DNA of 64,000 bases from an uncultured virus (IMG/VR IMGVR_UViG_3300044732_003010) (lineage: Duplodnaviria > Heunggongvirae > Uroviricota > Caudoviricetes), in IMG/VR virus record IMGVR_UViG_3300044732_003010, positions 1 to 64,000 of that record; one strand, given 5' to 3'. Every line of letters begins with the position of its first letter. Positions within the stretch are counted from its first letter, which is position 1. The notes under the pieces are model-generated. The model saw only the letters and a program-made list of their open reading frames with translations. It did no database searches and was not told the DNA's origin. Both the position numbers and the translations under genes were made by a program. Shown piece after piece: positions 5,914 through 58,985 of this stretch.

Positions 5914-8796
5914 ATGGTAACACAATCCTCGAACCGTGTCAAGATCGATAAAAACAATCCTTGCCCCCACTGTGGTAAGCCTGATTGGTGCTATATGTAC
6001 ACATCTGAAGACGGCAATTTACTCTCGGTCTGCAACCGAGATCACGAACCTGCACCGGGATGGGAAAAATCTTCTAAATTAGATGGTCAGGGCAAGCCAA
6101 TCTACTATTTTAAGAAAGAAGTCAAGTTTTCCGACTACAAAACAGAAAAAACTCAATACTTCGTTTATCCTCCTCTTGCCAACGGATTGAAAATCCGTGT
6201 GTACCGGAAAGACTATCAAGAAGATGGTATTTGGAAAAAGGATATTAAACAGCAGCACTCTACAGACAATGGCAAAAACTGGAAGTGGGGCATAGATGAT
6301 ATTGAGTACAAAGATATACCTCTTTATCGTCAAGACCGCCTAGAAAAGGCTATTAAAGAAGGGACTCAGATATTTGTAGTAGAAGGCGAGACTAAGGTAG
6401 AGAAACTAGAATCTCTAGGATTAGTTGCCACTTGTAATATAGGCGGATCAAAAAAATGGCAACCGTCCCACACAGAAGCTTTAAAGGGAGCAAATCTGAT
6501 TTTATGCCCTGATCGCGACAAAGGGGGAGTGGCTCACTGCCAGAAAATTTATCAAGATTTCCCCGATGCAAAATGGCTTTATGCCTATCCAGATTCCCCT
6601 TTGTGGAATCATTTACCAGATTCTCAAGGGGTAGATATTCTTAATTGGATTGAAGAAAAGAAGGTAACTCTCGATACATTGTTAACTTCGATAGTTGATA
6701 AACCAAAAGAAATAAAAGAGAGCAAAGAAAAAGAAGTCACAGTAACAGAAACGATGACTTTTCAAGACCTAATAACAGCTATTGACGGCTGTATTGGACA
6801 GGAAGAAATCACCCGAACTCAGTGGCAAGAAAAAGTCGATCTGTGGGCAAAAGCCACTGGTAGGAAACCATCAGACATACGACATTTAATTGAAATCCGT
6901 AAAACAGAAATAGCAGAAGGGGATGCTATCAAATCAGGATTAGAAGGGTTCCTGAAAGGTAAGCATTATCAGCAGAAAGAGATTGATCTTTTTGAGATAC
7001 TTCCGAAACCTTTAGCCGAAGCGATTATAAGCCGTGCCAAGACATTAAATCAACCCCCAATCAGATTACTGCATTCTTTATGGCCAATACTAGGAGCTAT
7101 TTTAGGAAGTCGGTTTGCAATTAACCTCCGAACTACTGTAAGAGAAAGGGAATGCTGGAAGGAATACCCGATATTCTATTGTGCAGATTTAGGCGGGGTT
7201 TCTACTGGAAAAACCCTCACTCAAAACGAAGTTTGTCGGGTTTTGAAAAGAAAAGATTTAGCCGAGCAGAAAAGAGTTACTAAGGAACAATCCACCCTAG
7301 ACGATCTAAAAGCTGCGTGGCAAGAGATGTCAGCATCAGATCGCAAGGCAAACAAAGCAAACGCTGAAATCAACCCTCGTCTTTATGAGAAAGAACATTG
7401 TCAGGCACGTCGGTGGTTTTACGACGAAGGCACTCTTGATGGCATCCTAAAAACGATGTCCTCGCAACCTTCTTGGCAAGGTGGGGTAGTCGTCTATGAC
7501 GAATTATCGGGATTTTTTGAGGGATTAAATCAGTACCGATCAGGTGGTAAAGGGAATGATCGGCAACGAGATTTAAGCAACTGGAATGGCCCTATTCGAA
7601 ATACTTTTGACCGTGTAAACAAAGACAATCGATACTATTTAGATGGGCAAACACTTAATAAATTAGGTGGGATACAAGTCGAGAAGCTCAGGAAATATCT
7701 TGATTTATCTAATGATGTCGATGGGGCAGTTTCTCGGTATCTTTTCTTGCTACACGAACCCCTTGATCCTCGTCCTGGTAAGCCGCCAGAAGACCCTAAT
7801 TCTATCGATGAGTGTATCGAAAATATTATCAATCAAATCAGTGGAATTAGCCTAGAAGCTGATGAAAATGGGATTATCGATCCTTATAATTGCTGGTTTA
7901 GCGAAATCGGAGAAAGTTATGCCTGGGGTATCAAGTACCATTACGAGATACTTATTAAGAAGTATCGAGCGATTAATCCATCGTTTGCTTCCTATCTAGG
8001 AAAGCAAATGAAGACCTTTTTAAGGCTTACATTAAGCATCCATCTTCTCAATTGGATATTTGATCCAGATAATACTAATCTTTACAGTATTCCTGTACAA
8101 ACAGCCATTAAAGCTGCTAAGATGACCGACTTCTATATCAGTCAATTCTTGACAATTCAAGGAGTTACATCTCACGACGAGAATCCAGTACAGGGAATTT
8201 TATCCGAAATCTGGGAGATCGTTAAAAGCGCAGGTCAAATCAAGCCCCGGGACGTTGCCCAAAAATTCGGCGGGCGTAAAATTAATGGGGAAAAAGTAAA
8301 TACATCTATCGCCCGTACCCTACTTACTCAGCTAGAGCAAGCTGGCTATGGACGACTAGAGGTCAAATCAAGGGGTATGATACTGCACTATCAAGAGCCA
8401 AAAGAATTAGAAACTTTTGAGATAGAAGATGAATCCCTAGAATACCAATCAGAGATAAAAGAAGAAATTGTCCAGGCTCCCACTCCCACACCAAAACCCG
8501 AACCAGTTTCTGACACTGAGATAGTAGAAGTTGAATCAGGGCCAGTCGATGAGTTATCGGCCGATGGTGTCCATATCGATAGCCTCCCTGATCTTGAAAA
8601 AGAAACCGTATTAATACGAACGGCTGCATCTGTAGAGATAGGGGAGCGAATTATCCCACCGAGAGCAGTCGGGAAAGTTACAGAAGTAACTTTTGATAAT
8701 CAATGGCTTTTGAGGGTAGAAACTGTTTTAAATGGGTCTGTAATTACTTTTACAATTCCATTTTCTGATTGCTATTTGCAGGATATAAGCACCTGA
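5914..8796 (+). CDS. Primase-helicase replication protein (Zn-binding + Toprim + DUF3987-like NTPase)
   Basis: CPHCGKPDWC zinc motif; VVEGE...PDRD Toprim; GGVSTGKT and VVYDELSG NTPase motifs. Confidence 0.85.
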   Translation: MVTQSSNRVKIDKNNPCPHCGKPDWCYMYTSEDGNLLSVCNRDHEPAPGWEKSSKLDGQGKPIYYFKKEVKFSDYKTEKTQYFVYPPLANGLKIRVYRKDYQEDGIWKKDIKQQHSTDNGKNWKWGIDDIEYKDIPLYRQDRLEKAIKEGTQIFVVEGETKVEKLESLGLVATCNIGGSKKWQPSHTEALKGANLILCPDRDKGGVAHCQKIYQDFPDAKWLYAYPDSPLWNHLPDSQGVDILNWIEEKKVTLDTLLTSIVDKPKEIKESKEKEVTVTETMTFQDLITAIDGCIGQEEITRTQWQEKVDLWAKATGRKPSDIRHLIEIRKTEIAEGDAIKSGLEGFLKGKHYQQKEIDLFEILPKPLAEAIISRAKTLNQPPIRLLHSLWPILGAILGSRFAINLRTTVRERECWKEYPIFYCADLGGVSTGKTLTQNEVCRVLKRKDLAEQKRVTKEQSTLDDLKAAWQEMSASDRKANKANAEINPRLYEKEHCQARRWFYDEGTLDGILKTMSSQPSWQGGVVVYDELSGFFEGLNQYRSGGKGNDRQRDLSNWNGPIRNTFDRVNKDNRYYLDGQTLNKLGGIQVEKLRKYLDLSNDVDGAVSRYLFLLHEPLDPRPGKPPEDPNSIDECIENIINQISGISLEADENGIIDPYNCWFSEIGESYAWGIKYHYEILIKKYRAINPSFASYLGKQMKTFLRLTLSIHLLNWIFDPDNTNLYSIPVQTAIKAAKMTDFYISQFLTIQGVTSHDENPVQGILSEIWEIVKSAGQIKPRDVAQKFGGRKINGEKVNTSIARTLLTQLEQAGYGRLEVKSRGMILHYQEPKELETFEIEDESLEYQSEIKEEIVQAPTPTPKPEPVSDTEIVEVESGPVDELSADGVHIDSLPDLEKETVLIRTAASVEIGERIIPPRAVGKVTEVTFDNQWLLRVETVLNGSVITFTIPFSDCYLQDIST

Positions 8797-44834: not shown

Positions 44835-44907
44835 TGTGGGGTCTAGGAGTCGAACCTAGTGTTTTAGGCTTATGAGGCCTATGTGGAAACCATTTCACTC
44901 ACCCCGC
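44835..44907 (-). tRNA. tRNA with CAT anticodon (Met or Ile2)
   Basis: GCGGGGT/ACCCCAC acceptor (one mismatch), TAGGC-CTCATAA-GCCTA anticodon arm, CTAGG-TTCGACT-CCTAG T arm; TTGACA promoter upstream; CCA not encoded. Confidence 0.85.
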
Positions 44908-50992: not shown

Positions 50993-51737
50993 CGCTTATC
51001 CTAGTGGGAACCATTACATCATCATCAAATTCTGCACTATCACGAATAATCGAGGTCAGTCCGTCATCGAGTTTCTCTATACCAGAATGTCCTATAAGTT
51101 TTCCGTCAGGGTCAATAACAGCTAATCCGTGCTTTTGAACAATATTAATTGCGTACTCGATGGTGTCAAAACCTAAAACTTTTTCAAAGGTATCAGTCAA
51201 TGTTTTAGCCATAGTCACTGCGTCTCTATGATTCCAATTTCCGTTAGGTTCAATTGTTATGGCAATCGGTCGGCCCGATTCATCTACAGAATCTATCCGA
51301 CGGCGAGAAATCGGATAATTAGTCATCTGTTCAATCTTTTCGAGGTTTTTTAGAGTAATCTTTAGAGTCTTCTCTCGGATTTCTCGTAAAATGCTATCAG
51401 TGTAAGCTTGTTGCTCTTGAATTTTTAAAAGCCAATAGGCTTTTGCTCTTTCTTCCCACCGATAATTTTTGTGTGCTAACTGCCAGTCATCGGGGACAGT
51501 TTTAGCTCGTTTAAATTTAGTCTTCTCTATCTGTTCCCCAGAAGCTTCCCCACAGTTACTGTAAGCTCGGTTTAAAGTGCGATAGCCTGATGGAATAGGA
51601 AGGTAAAAAATCTGAAATCTTTCAAACCAATCAGGGGTTTCTAGTTCTTGCTGTTCCCAGATAGGATATTTGGTAAACTCGATTACCTCTTCATGAATAG
51701 AGTATGTACGCTTTCTGCCTCGATTAGTGACAACCAT
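50973..51737 (-). CDS. terS: Terminase small subunit (putative)
   Basis: WEQQ..ET...F..F..Y, W..RA.AY motif; directly upstream of terL. Confidence 0.65.
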   Translation of the reverse strand: MVVTNRGRKRTYSIHEEVIEFTKYPIWEQQELETPDWFERFQIFYLPIPSGYRTLNRAYSNCGEASGEQIEKTKFKRAKTVPDDWQLAHKNYRWEERAKAYWLLKIQEQQAYTDSILREIREKTLKITLKNLEKIEQMTNYPISRRRIDSVDESGRPIAITIEPNGNWNHRDAVTMAKTLTDTFEKVLGFDTIEYAINIVQKHGLAVIDPDGKLIGHSGIEKLDDGLTSIIRDSAEFDDDVMVPTRISDDDESE

Positions 51738-51778
51738 TGGTTATTATAGTAGTAGAGTTACTTAATCTTACATCAATC

Positions 51779-52483
51779 ATGACAGATAAATTAGAAATTG
51801 AGTATCGACGGCTTTGCGACCTAAAACAACTAAAGGGTAATTCCAAAAAACACGCCACTGAAAACACCATAGCTTCAATATTGGAGTTGGGATTTAAAGA
51901 CCCAATTGGCTACGATCCGAGCTTAAACGGCGGAAAAGGGGGGATTACTGAGGGTCATGATCGGTGTGCCGCACTATTAGCAATTAAAAAGCGCAAAATA
52001 GATCGACCTAGAGGTATAGATATTGACAATGATGGGGAGTGGATGGTTCCTATTTTAGTAGGAGTTCACGCTAAAAATGAGGCTCAAGCTATAAAATACT
52101 CGATTATTCACAACCATTCTACGATTCACGGGGCGGGGCTTGACCTTGCTACGGAATTAAAGCTTTTTGATACTGACTTACTAATTAGCCAAGCTGAATA
52201 CCTTGATGAAGAGGGGGAGAATTTAGGAGTAATCGGCGATTTAAATTCAATCCTAGAAGCTTTAAATACTTCAGATAATTTAGATAATTCTGATAATTTT
52301 GAATCGAATATAACAGATAATTTTTCGGGAAAAAACAAAGAAATTGACATCGAGGGTATGGATGGGCAAATGATAATTAAATTAAGTTATACCGAAAATG
52401 AATACTGGCAAGTAAAAGAACAATTAAGTAAAATAGCATCGACACCCGAACAAGCAGTATGGAAGCTTTTAGGTAATGACTAA
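51779..52483 (+). CDS. ParB-like nuclease-domain protein
   Basis: L....NSKKH...IASILELGFKDPI...EGHDR; precedes the methyltransferase. Confidence 0.7.
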   Translation: MTDKLEIEYRRLCDLKQLKGNSKKHATENTIASILELGFKDPIGYDPSLNGGKGGITEGHDRCAALLAIKKRKIDRPRGIDIDNDGEWMVPILVGVHAKNEAQAIKYSIIHNHSTIHGAGLDLATELKLFDTDLLISQAEYLDEEGENLGVIGDLNSILEALNTSDNLDNSDNFESNITDNFSGKNKEIDIEGMDGQMIIKLSYTENEYWQVKEQLSKIASTPEQAVWKLLGND

Positions 52484-53522
52484 ACATAAATTTGCATATA
52501 AGTGGAATTTGTCAGATGGATACCCAGCACCCGGAATTGAAAAACATGGGTTAAAAGTATTTGGTACTTTTATCTGTGGCGGTGGTTCGACTATGGGTTA
52601 CAAGTTAGCAGGTTTTGACCATTTAGGAGGTGTTGAAATAGACTCGCAGGTAGCTGATGTATATAAAGTTAACCACAATCCTAAATATTTATTTATTGAA
52701 GATATAAGAGATTTTGCTGATCGTACAATCTTTCCTAATGAACTTTATAACCTAGATATTTTAGATGGCTCACCTCCCTGCTCTTCATTTAGCATGGCAG
52801 GAAATAGAGAAAAAGACTGGGGGAAAGAAAAGGTATTTAGGGAAGGTCAGGCTAAACAGCGACTTGATGACCTTTTCTTTGATTACATACGATTAGCAAA
52901 AAAACTACAGCCAAAGGTCGTTATCGCTGAAAATGTTAAAGGAATTATTCAAGGTAATGCCAAAGCGTATGTAAAGCGAATAAAAGATGAATTTGAAAAA
53001 GCAGGATATAAAGTACAGTTATTTCTTTTGAACGCTGCGAGCATGGGAGTGCCTCAAAAACGTGAGCGAGTATTTTTTATTTGCCAAAGGAATGATTTAA
53101 ACTTTAAAAATCTAGAGTTAAGTTTTGATGAAAAATCAATTATTTATAGTGAATTTAAGTCAACAAAATTAGGAAAAGAATTAACCAATGAAACAAAAGC
53201 TGTATGGGATAAAAGAATAAAAACAGATCAAAATTTAGAGAGTATTCACGAAAGAATTGGAAACAAAAGAAAAAGATTTCAAGCTAAATTTATTCACGAT
53301 AACCAGATTTCTCCTACTATATTAGCAGGTGAAGATTCTGTCCCAATAAGATTTGATCATCCAAATAGAATAACAATGGATGAAGTTAAAATGATTGGTA
53401 GCTATCCGCTTGATTACAACTTTAAAAATATTAAACCAAATTATTTAACAGGAATGAGTGTGCCTCCTGTAATGACTGCACAGATAGCGCATCAGATTTA
53501 TTTACAGTGGTTTACAGAATAA
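52476..53522 (+). CDS. DNA (cytosine-5) methyltransferase
   Basis: FICGGG, GSPPC, ENV, PQKRERVF, GMSVPP. Confidence 0.92.
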   Translation: MTKHKFAYKWNLSDGYPAPGIEKHGLKVFGTFICGGGSTMGYKLAGFDHLGGVEIDSQVADVYKVNHNPKYLFIEDIRDFADRTIFPNELYNLDILDGSPPCSSFSMAGNREKDWGKEKVFREGQAKQRLDDLFFDYIRLAKKLQPKVVIAENVKGIIQGNAKAYVKRIKDEFEKAGYKVQLFLLNAASMGVPQKRERVFFICQRNDLNFKNLELSFDEKSIIYSEFKSTKLGKELTNETKAVWDKRIKTDQNLESIHERIGNKRKRFQAKFIHDNQISPTILAGEDSVPIRFDHPNRITMDEVKMIGSYPLDYNFKNIKPNYLTGMSVPPVMTAQIAHQIYLQWFTE

Positions 53523-54250: not shown

Positions 54251-54586
54251 TTATTTAAACCAGACAAACTTGTGATGGCAGTCCTGGCAATAAAATTGCC
54301 TATTTCCTGCTTTAGTATCGGGTAATTGGTGAAGATTGTGGCTGTGGCACCTGGGACAATGCTCTTCCTCTGGGGGGAGCAATTCTCCCAATTCCAGGCA
54401 CCGATAAACTTTATAAACGGCGCGGCGGACGTGTTCTTGTTGCACGCCTAACTTTTCGGCTAATTTTTTACTAGCTTTGTACCGATAAAACTTGTGCTTT
54501 TCGGTAAGGGGCAAAGGAAGAATTCCGTAGAAATCAGCCCATGCCCGATAAATGTTAGCTTGTCTTGGTGTGATCGGCATAATCAA
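54251..54586 (-). CDS. HTH + zinc-ribbon protein
   Basis: ITPRQA...LAEKLGV..EHVR (sigma region 4-like); CPRC...FYCQDC. Confidence 0.65.
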   Translation of the reverse strand: MIMPITPRQANIYRAWADFYGILPLPLTEKHKFYRYKASKKLAEKLGVQQEHVRRAVYKVYRCLELGELLPPEEEHCPRCHSHNLHQLPDTKAGNRQFYCQDCHHKFVWFK

Positions 54587-54917
54587 AACTGTAATACTTC
54601 CAATAATCCTCTCTCAATTGCTGAAAGTCAATCAAGCCTATTTTTAAATAAGATTTATTGGGATTAAACTGCTGAGGTATTGTATATTTTCCTCGTTTTT
54701 CTTGCGCCCAATTTATCAAATCGTTATTACTCGGCATAGTATCTGTCTGTCCAGCATCAATCCATTTAAGTCTTGCAATCTTTTCAAAAATTTTGCAATA
54801 CCGAGCCGCTTCATGAGAATCGTGAAGATACCCCATTTTGCTGTTTTCGTTCCAGTTTTCTTCAATTTCTTTAAGAAGAAGTTCGGATTCTTTAATTTTT
54901 TGCGAAATAGTAGTCAT
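54555..54917 (-). CDS. Hypothetical protein (candidate target of the antisense RNA)
   Basis: 120-aa ORF with a G8 RBS. Confidence 0.65.
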   Translation of the reverse strand: MTTISQKIKESELLLKEIEENWNENSKMGYLHDSHEAARYCKIFEKIARLKWIDAGQTDTMPSNNDLINWAQEKRGKYTIPQQFNPNKSYLKIGLIDFQQLREDYWKYYSFDYADHTKTS

Positions 54918-54942
54918 AATTTCCCCCCCCTACTTAAGCTTC

Positions 54943-55034
54943 GGGGTATCCCTAATAGGGATTATTAGATAAAGCGCACGCAACTACGACTATAGTTCAT
55001 AGTTTCAATTCCTAATAGGAGTTCTTTGTGCAAC
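54943..55034 (-). CRISPR. Degenerate type I-D-like repeat-spacer-repeat unit (mini-array/crRNA-like RNA), no cas genes
   Basis: Minus strand: GTTGCACAAAGAACTCCTATTAGGAATTGAAAC, short spacer, then ...TAATAATCCCTATTAGGGAT; matches the cyanobacterial CCCTATTAGGGATTGAAAC repeat end. Confidence 0.65.
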
Positions 55035-55086
55035 TACCTTAAGTAAATCACCTAATTCGTAAAAATAGGTGTTTTGCTGTGCCACT

Positions 55087-55548
55087 TTAGGCACTGGCAC
55101 GCTGAGAAAATCGGTAACATACCTCTTGATAGGAAATACACTGAATCTCTCCCTTAATATTTTCAAATACCCAATAATCGCCATCGCTATCTCGATAAAT
55201 AGCATTTAAATCAATAGGAATCTCAAAAGTTGCTGACACCTCTCCTTTTTTACCTTCAAATTTTCGGCTTACAGGTTCCATAAATTGCTTTTTGTAGCCA
55301 CCATATTTAATATCTTTTTCGCTAGATATTTTAGCGATCCACGCTTTCCAAGCTCGTTTGGGAGTTTCGAGGGTAAGAGTGCGAGTTTTAGGCAATCTTT
55401 TAAAGCTTACGATAGTATTTTTTTGAAGCTGTTCAATTGCGGCTTCTACTGCTAAGATTTTAATCACTAATTTGGCTTTATTACGATTGCCATGAGTCGC
55501 TCGTAATTGAGCATTTAACTTGTTTAATTTTGTTTTTAGGGTATTCAT
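55087..55548 (-). CDS. Early hypothetical protein with an N-terminus shared with 57861..58427
   Basis: MNTLKTKL..L..QL..T.GNR.KAK.VI.IL.VE.AIE.L. Confidence 0.7.
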   Translation of the reverse strand: MNTLKTKLNKLNAQLRATHGNRNKAKLVIKILAVEAAIEQLQKNTIVSFKRLPKTRTLTLETPKRAWKAWIAKISSEKDIKYGGYKKQFMEPVSRKFEGKKGEVSATFEIPIDLNAIYRDSDGDYWVFENIKGEIQCISYQEVCYRFSQRASA

Positions 55549-58427: not shown

Positions 58428-58601
58428 ATAAGCCTCAAGAAGTAATTGATAACACAAAATTTACCAAACAGACCGTATCTATTCTAAACAGAGAAGGTGA
58501 ACCAAAAAAGTCCGAAAGCTTGTTTATATTGTCTAAAATTCAGTGACCTAAGCAAGTCAGTAAACTGCTTAATTTAAGTACCTCACTTAGGAAAATAAAT
58601 C

Positions 58602-58985
58602 ATGAACACAGAACAAACTATTAAAAAGTTTAAAGCCAGCAAACTTCGTATTTACGAAGATGGTTACATCGGGCCTCACGGATGGTACTGGGGAAGTCAC
58701 ACAATTGCTAGTTTTATAGCAAAAGCTATTCAGACAAAACACGGTCATAATATGACTGACGTTCTAAATTATACCACTATCTATGTCTCAGAGCTAGTTA
58801 AGGTTCCTGCGGGGGGTTTAGCTTGCGGATGTCATGACACACTCTACAGCGTGACGGCTTTAGTTGATTTGCCCCTAGAGTTGCCGACGGAAAAAGAGAT
58901 ATACGCCGCTTACAAACACAATAACGCCCATTTCAACGGCGTAGAGGCTATAAAAGGCGGTTATCACTTTTATAGCATTTGGTAA
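58602..58985 (+). CDS. Hypothetical protein
   Basis: 127 aa, AGGA RBS. Confidence 0.6.
   Translation: MNTEQTIKKFKASKLRIYEDGYIGPHGWYWGSHTIASFIAKAIQTKHGHNMTDVLNYTTIYVSELVKVPAGGLACGCHDTLYSVTALVDLPLELPTEKEIYAAYKHNNAHFNGVEAIKGGYHFYSIW

Follow-up and report, generated by a model that had tools for sequence, protein, structure and literature searches.

A type I-D crRNA look-alike among the small genes of a Microcystis phage, a probable RNA anti-CRISPR

Introduction

Microcystis, which causes toxic blooms in fresh water, is noted for CRISPR arrays of very large size, and it is poorly understood how its phages survive such pressure. Why should such a phage carry two degenerate copies of a CRISPR repeat, separated by a short spacer-like stretch, among its small genes? 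We addressed this question in the first 64 kb (the window) of an 88,081-base virus record. A preliminary description of the window, made from its letters, had proposed a phage-borne mini-array that mimics the type I-D repeat of the host and works either as a decoy or as a CreA/CreR-like guide. That the unit is phage-borne stands, the record being that of an 88-kb virus. Judged from its sequence and from comparison with relatives and hosts, the element is most likely a phage-encoded type I-D crRNA look-alike, an RNA anti-CRISPR that would use host proteins.

Results

Anatomy of the element

The element lies on the minus strand in a 170-base gap between two ORFs (55548-55087 and 54917-54555), both of which are part of a run of six small minus-strand ORFs; none of the six, including the flanking genes that the preliminary description named as anti-CRISPR candidates, has a family match. 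It consists of two degenerate repeats, PsiR1 and PsiR2, with a pseudo-spacer, PsiS, between them (Table 1). Its minus-strand letters confirmed the anatomy put forward in the preliminary description, including an 8-base handle kept in PsiR1 and a PsiR2 hairpin without the full handle: after the first two handle-like bases of PsiR2, the rest of the handle is absent. The closing pair of the PsiR1 hairpin is altered on both sides with respect to the host repeat. The C-G to T-A stem change that had been called compensatory proved right when set against the host consensus, and it is fixed in 25 of 25 aligned versions of the element. The PsiR2 hairpin is expected to be a second Cas6 cut site.

Table 1. 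Features of the element and its flanking genes in the window, with the host mini-arrays compared with them (for the latter, positions are those of the named locus).
Feature	Position	Strand	Characteristics
PsiR1 (degenerate repeat 1), whole	55034-55002	-	hairpin and 8-base handle intact
PsiR1 5' part	55021..55034	-	4 bases shorter than the 37-base family consensus
PsiR1 hairpin	55010..55020	-	4-pair stem, 3-base loop
5' handle, 8 bases	55002..55009	-	identical to the host type I-D repeat handle
Pseudo-spacer PsiS, variant A	54985..55001	-	17 bases here (15-17 as a block); replaced wholesale in variants B and C
PsiR2 (degenerate repeat 2), whole	54984-54948	-	hairpin kept, handle lost
PsiR2 5' part	54961..54984	-	3-base length difference among relatives
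PsiR2 hairpin and first two handle bases	54948..54960	-	hairpin proper 54960-54950, same as host repeat hairpin
Third stem-loop	54923..54947	-	4 G-C pairs, 12-base loop; stem-loop proper 54946-54927
Upstream gene, 153 aa	55087..55548	-	no family; anchor for fetching relatives
Downstream gene, 120 aa	54555..54917	-	no family; gene at this position varies among relatives
Host mini-array, Microcystis G015	L278 3436-3660		
Host mini-array, Microcystis G001	L280 about 6640-6850		
Host mini-array, Microcystis G011	L276 2226-2480		

The third stem-loop adjoins PsiR2, and its 3' arm overlaps the G-rich ribosome-binding stretch of the next gene (start codon at 54917). Such an overlap is what one would find in an mRNA leader or processing cassette that has no anti-CRISPR role, the hairpins being cut sites (for host Cas6d or another RNase) or end stabilisers and the third stem-loop controlling translation of the next gene. 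A consensus scan found no promoter-like site or terminator in the 170-base gap, and read-through transcription is therefore likely, which would also suit a leader. By contrast, the whole region does not fold more stably than its shuffles (z = -1.23), and a leader gives no reason to keep the exact 8-base handle together with the host hairpin. Contigs of four freshwater metatranscriptome sets match only parts of the flanking genes (54554-54901, 55028-55178 and 55388-55538) and do not span the element. A leader peptide was also considered and rejected: an 11-codon frame starts in the pseudo-spacer found in the window (variant A, below), and the two other variants, B and C, lack a start codon at that place. 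Reading the codons by eye, 4 of the 5 changes within variant A alter a residue of this frame.

Mimicry of a cyanobacterial repeat

An 18-base pattern made up of hairpin and handle occurs once in the 64-kb window at no more than 2 mismatches, with 0.01 occurrences expected, and it was matched in 1 of 100 shuffles. One further copy is located elsewhere in the 88-kb genome, beyond the window. PsiR1 agrees at 18 of 18 bases with the hairpin core and handle of cyanobacterial arrays, the same hairpin and handle being present in at least 122 stretches of species-representative genomes. Nearly all of these are arrays of 37-base repeats, and among the titled matches listed all but 4 of 80 are cyanobacterial.

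When 54850-55150 was compared with 4227 Rfam families, the best two matches were both CRISPR-DR5 (RF01318), on the minus strand and exactly on PsiR1 and PsiR2. Their scores of 19.7 and 18.8 bits are both under the gathering score of 40, indicating that the units are degenerate repeats and not members of an array. PsiR1 aligns to model positions 1-37 with a 4-base gap, and PsiR2 agrees at 15 of 15 bases with model positions 17-31. No cas I-D genes were found in the 88-kb record, and the element is made of two units only, with no regular array. The one Rfam match at gathering score in the window is a tRNA gene at 44835-44907 (minus strand).

The host and its type I-D system

The host is Microcystis, whose I-D system uses this repeat family and targets the phage heavily. 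This assignment follows from I-D array repeats of the same family and from 36 spacer matches. In a set of 17 species-representative Microcystis genomes, 14 have the repeat, in up to 175 copies, and 7 have cas10d. One genome (G002) carries an array of this family directly behind cas10d, csc2, csc1, cas3', cas6, cas4 and cas1d, so that the mimicry of a host type I-D repeat, as first proposed, holds. An M. aeruginosa I-D locus is described in PMC8216271.

Among 1827 spacers from all fetched arrays of the repeat family, 36 match the phage over at least 28 bases, 20 of them within the window, and all 36 are from 7 Microcystis genomes; from the arrays of other cyanobacteria there were only short matches, attributable to chance. 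A 5' GTN flank is present at 27 of the 36 protospacers (GTT at 17, GTC at 9 and GTA at 1). The spacers of the host arrays are 34-39 bases long. Protospacer positions include 442, 2799, 7350, 43002, 49739 and 55208, and one Microcystis spacer matches the upstream 153-aa gene at 55208-55236. Nine of the 36 protospacers are without GTN, and five of these nine carry ATC or ATT, flanks that could be read as escape mutations of the first PAM base.

Elsewhere in the window, the 158 bases at 58543-58700 are 84% identical to unannotated DNA of MaMV-group Microcystis phages, with a run of 35 bases (58543-58577) identical in Ma-LMM01. These were the only matches obtained for a 10-kb query.

Conservation in relatives

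The repeat pattern, used as an anchor, retrieved 34 viral loci, 21 of which hold the element. A spacer-region anchor (the second half of the inter-hairpin region) found it in 26 of 26 loci, six of them with a different unit 1, in which either a stem pair has become G-U or the loop is altered. With the upstream 153-aa protein alone as anchor, it was present in 20 of 21 loci (19 whole and one cut after the pseudo-spacer) and absent from one. A further scan, with the PsiR2 hairpin and the third stem-loop together, brought in 31 viral loci and another 11 from metagenomes. In total, 26 distinct versions of the element were collected from contigs of uncultured viruses and of metagenomes. The GenBank phage set gave no match to it, and a search for cultured relatives through a 514-aa protein returned remote matches only.

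Conservation of handle and hairpin in relatives, named at the outset as decisive for the proposal, was borne out by an alignment of 25 versions. Pairing holds in 100% of cells for hairpins 1 and 2, including all 6 pairs of the PsiR2 hairpin, and in 95% for hairpin 3; RNAalifold recovered the same three hairpins unaided. The handle is unchanged in all versions with variant A or C, and its last base differs in variant B. Within this phage set, no two-sided pair change was found, and hairpin 1 shows a one-sided change to G-U. The structure is thus supported by conservation, not by covariation. An extra long-range helix proposed by RNAalifold showed one-sided changes only and was rejected.

Flanking genes change among the relatives, with three kinds upstream and at least five kinds downstream. 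This bears on whether the element could be an inert remnant of a host array end that was acquired by recombination. Degenerate repeats and a missing handle are indeed typical of array ends (L161 and L166 are host examples). However, the 26 distinct versions keep every hairpin pair while neighbours and pseudo-spacers change, and loci fetched by the neighbouring protein alone nearly always contain the element, which makes a remnant highly improbable.

The PsiR2 hairpin, with the third stem-loop and the ribosome-binding stretch, also forms a cassette that precedes several different genes. It stands without unit 1 in L248/L265, L250 and L267, and second copies are found in L243, L259, L264, L273 and L274. 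In some contigs the cassette comes directly after a consensus-like promoter, and in others it occurs twice, about 336 bases apart. The hairpin cassette alone, without handle or pseudo-spacer, accounts for 7 of the 23 contexts in relatives. Placement before different genes, right after a clear promoter or in doubled form, is consistent with the leader explanation given above; the occurrence of the hairpin by itself fits a Cas6 sponge.

Viral contigs hold other units of the same repeat family, solitary or paired (L007, L012, L020, L021, L034, L035; L008, L031; L025; L029; L033; L006), and 13 of the 34 loci belong to other families. As these units are unrelated and each is conserved within its own group, I-D repeat mimicry seems to have arisen several times.

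Pseudo-spacers are exchanged as blocks

Three unrelated pseudo-spacers of 15-17 bases, A, B and C, occur between the same two repeats. Divergence sets in at the base next to the handle and lasts for 15-17 bases, beyond which the sequences are again alike. The repeat-short spacer-repeat layout of the preliminary description is upheld by this exchange, which takes place exactly between the handle and the second unit; its confinement to 15-17 bases supports parsing the element with a 17-base guide over a 41-base guide. Variant A is that of the window and of most relatives. Variant B was found in five loci (L297, L326, L338, L345 and L358; four of the five contigs are also carried as L239, L246/L228, L254 and L261/L229), and variant C in L275. 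Among variant-A versions, the pseudo-spacer is as conserved as the repeats, and its variable positions (5, 13 and 15) do not show the 6-base periodicity that a type I guide would be expected to have, which is a point against a guide. The distance from handle to hairpin is 36-41 bases in the phage units, 62-68 in host mini-arrays and about 53 in normal repeats.

Swappable blocks of this kind are unneeded in an mRNA leader, and together with the retained handle they leave that explanation improbable. They bear as well on a pure RNA decoy of the Racr type, in which hairpins and handle would bind Cas6d, Cas5d and Cas7d into useless complexes, the spacer would be target-less and the pseudo-spacer variants would reflect drift or recombination. 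Such a decoy is in keeping with the heavy targeting of the phage by host spacers, with the sponge-like solitary hairpin cassettes, with the frequency of other solitary units of the repeat family in viral contigs (the 13 loci above) and with an existing catalogue that includes solitary I-D units from IMG/VR (PMC10651486). By contrast, a decoy could do without a second repeat and with a spacer of any length, and it does not lead one to expect a pseudo-spacer that is replaced as a precise block between constant repeats and that, in variant A, is conserved to the same degree as those repeats.

Host mini-arrays and the targets of the pseudo-spacers

In Microcystis G015 and G001 (type 1) and G011 (type 2), a degenerate mini-array is located between cas3' and cas10d. 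Each spacer of these host mini-arrays has a matching site some 80-150 bases off, with 15 of 15 and 14 of 15 counted positions in agreement. Positions 6 and 12 of a guide are not paired by a type I complex. In type 1, the first 17 spacer bases match a GTC-flanked site on the opposite strand, about 80 bases from the spacer, except at positions 6 and 12. In type 2, the site is GTT-flanked, and over the first 14 bases mismatches occur only at positions 6 and 12. Downstream of the target sites come a small ORF, nucleotidyltransferase/HepT toxin-antitoxin genes and cas10d. This layout matches the I-D cargo regulation outlined by Shmakov et al. (10.1101/2023.03.03.530964), in whose account I-D mini-array spacers and targets vary between loci.

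Compared in register with the type-1 host target, variant B agrees at 12 of 15 (G015) or 13 of 15 (G001) counted positions. Positions 1-3, 5 and 7-15 agree, seed position 4 is mismatched and the match ends at 15. Agreement at 12 or more of 15 positions was reached by 0.08% of 200,000 variant-B shuffles and by 13 of 176,128 17-mers of the phage genome, and every other pairing of a phage pseudo-spacer with a mini-array spacer or target scored 2-9. The type-1 site is the top match of variant B in 192 kb of I-D loci, a score reached by 3 of 30 shuffled guides. Variant-B contigs are also matched by Microcystis spacers. A second variant-B site (GTC-flanked, 11 PAM-proximal bases; in G001, G004, G010 and G012) was within chance, with 36 matches against 32 in the control. 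In viral contigs, mimics of the host type-2 mini-array spacer were considered and rejected, as none of 7 matches was in repeat context.

For variant A, a search with GTN PAM of host and phage DNA, as the preliminary description had suggested, gave no target above controls. None of the 17 Microcystis genomes matched it over 28 bases at no more than 3 mismatches. Requiring the PAM and 14 bases, there were 15 matches in these genomes against 23 for a reversed control, and leaving positions 6 and 12 free gave 69 against 221. In 11 stretches of I-D loci, the top score of 11 of 15 was reached by 24 of 30 shuffled guides, and every host mini-array spacer or target seen scored 3-6 of 15. No target was found in the phage's own genome, and viral contigs yielded a single PAM-flanked match, which is coding-like. 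Two candidate sites were rejected. The best site genus-wide (15 of 16 bases, GTA-flanked, at about 10001 of L184 from G004, and the same in G016) was judged to be chance because it falls within the part of a 922-aa metacaspase-like gene that codes for the caspase domain, and because G004 and G016 are without cas10d. A GTT-flanked 7-base seed match in L281/L282 is inside a cas3'-like gene and was likewise judged to be chance. Searches with variant C gave no target either.

Of the two functions first proposed, the guide is backed indirectly by variant B, which resembles the target of a host mini-array; no target was found for variant A. The missing targets of variants A and C in these searches fit a pure decoy, and the in-register resemblance of variant B to a host regulatory target argues against one. 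A pure decoy thus seems possible but rather unlikely. The cassette-like pseudo-spacer and the variant-B likeness lead us to favour a guide, and we tentatively give nearly an even chance to a pseudo-spacer that would steer a shortened Cascade to a host guard or cas promoter.

Other features of the phage genome

Beyond the window, at 81613-83316 of the genome (L004 3614-5317, plus strand), a gene encodes a 567-aa TnpB/Cas12f-like protein (Pfam OrfB_IS605 and Cas12f1-like TNB). Directly after it, at 83313-83563, is an array of four direct repeats, each of 36 bases, and three spacers 34-38 bases long, and a 12-base stretch near 83156, in the 3' end of the gene, is complementary to the repeat start. 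Gene and repeats together resemble a miniature type V system carried by the phage; none of the three spacers matched the 17 Microcystis genomes.

Right after this array, at about 83600-83710 (plus strand), there is a second type I-D-like mini-array, composed of a Microcystis repeat that is near-canonical and has its handle, a spacer of 37 bases with a 7-pair palindrome in it, and a degenerate repeat with a broken hairpin. Its spacer had no target in the 17 Microcystis genomes, and its two viral matches are the same locus in near-identical relatives. Within the window, a ParB-like/methylase-like ORF and a C-5 cytosine DNA methyltransferase at 51737-53522 (plus strand) converge on the small-gene operon and may form an anti-restriction neighbourhood.

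The full-length spacer of the second unit and the repeat-spacer-repeat layout on a phage are what would be seen if the element were a viral mini-array for competition between phages, arming host Cascade against a rival virus. There is a precedent in archaeal viruses, and the same has been proposed for cyanophage N-1, which carries a DR5-family array (PMC4916379). By contrast, 15-17 bases are far under the 34-39 bases of host spacers and the repeats are degenerate. Since, moreover, the GenBank phage set had no match and viral contigs had no PAM-flanked match save the coding-like one, competition has very little probability.

Discussion

How might the element work? It would be transcribed within the surrounding minus-strand operon of small early genes, and host Cas6d would cut at the 3' base of each hairpin to release an RNA of about 60 bases, consisting of the 8-base handle, 41 bases and a 3' hairpin. 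This RNA, 12 bases shorter than a normal crRNA body, could be taken up by host Cas5d, Cas7d and Cas6d to form a shortened Cascade, and Cas proteins would thereby be drawn off phage-targeting crRNAs. The short pseudo-spacer might then guide the complex, without cleavage, to the type of host promoter that I-D mini-arrays control, the proposed target being the one that drives the cargo/toxin-antitoxin-cas10d block, between cas3' and cas10d. The guide and decoy readings are compatible and not exclusive; either would amount to a hijack or a clogging of host CRISPR.

A broader reading, which we regard as unlikely, joins these functions with that of a leader, the host crRNA-processing signal having been turned into a modular part of Microcystis-phage early operons. 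At each cassette of a Cas6d-type hairpin and a 5' stem-loop, host Cas6d would cut the polycistronic phage RNA to give stable, translatable messages, and each cut would lock up one Cas6d molecule. The handle-bearing copy would also give a short guide, and phages would exchange its 15-17-base cassette so as to keep up with guard promoters that are polymorphic among host strains, here those of the toxin-antitoxin cargo upstream of cas10d.

The closest known counterparts are the viral crlRNAs termed 'Cracr' (Liu et al., 10.1101/2024.10.29.618823). As their report presents them, they have the same plan of a degenerate repeat, a short pseudo-spacer and a degenerate repeat outside a cas locus. Short pseudo-spacers are typical of them, shorter than those of the host as in the phage element, and variable small genes adjoin both. 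The action proposed for them is also the same, namely competition for Cas proteins and silencing of a cas or guard promoter that is under host mini-array control. The main text of that report covers V-A, I-F, I-E, I-C and I-B in Pseudomonadota, Bacillota and Actinomycetota; neither I-D nor any cyanobacterium is among them. It identifies a Cracr by at least 9 PAM-proximal bases shared with a host CreA/CreR spacer. In a comparison that covered the 17 species-representative Microcystis genomes, variant A shared no such stretch, and the 12-13 of 15 in-register positions of variant B are interrupted at position 4.

The Racr and solitary repeat units described by Camara-Wilpert et al. (2023, PMC10651486) are likewise intergenic phage repeat mimics near small genes, of a subtype that matches the host system and without cas linkage. 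Unlike these, the phage element is not solitary, as a second hairpin follows 41 bases after the handle and the SRUFinder rule given there allows no partial repeat within 100 bases; paired units of this sort are set aside by that pipeline as mini-arrays. The catalogue of that paper includes I-D units from IMG/VR viruses, and its available text describes no tested I-D Racr. The sequence of the element has no occurrence, on either strand, among the 2193 units catalogued.

Host I-D mini-arrays (Shmakov et al. 2023, 10.1101/2023.03.03.530964) use the same repeat family and the same degenerate repeat-spacer-repeat plan, but as described there they are chromosomal and within the cas locus, which the phage element is not. 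Nostoc cyanophage N-1 (Chenard et al. 2016, PMC4916379) also has DR5-family repeats without cas genes; it is reported to hold five full 37-base repeats and four spacers of 29-37 bases, whereas the phage element has two degenerate repeats and one pseudo-spacer. Our literature search found no description of the element. Its kind is already known, and the cyanobacterial type I-D example appears to be new, as do two points about it: the swappable 15-17-base cassette and the link of variant B to a host I-D mini-array target.

For the biology of Microcystis and its phages, the element is a concrete and widespread candidate for an RNA counter-measure against type I-D. That a variant found in phages pairs up with the target of a host mini-array offers a directly testable model of an arms race at the level of guides, and the compact unit of 60 bases might lend the Microcystis I-D editing system (PMC8216271) a short format for its guides.
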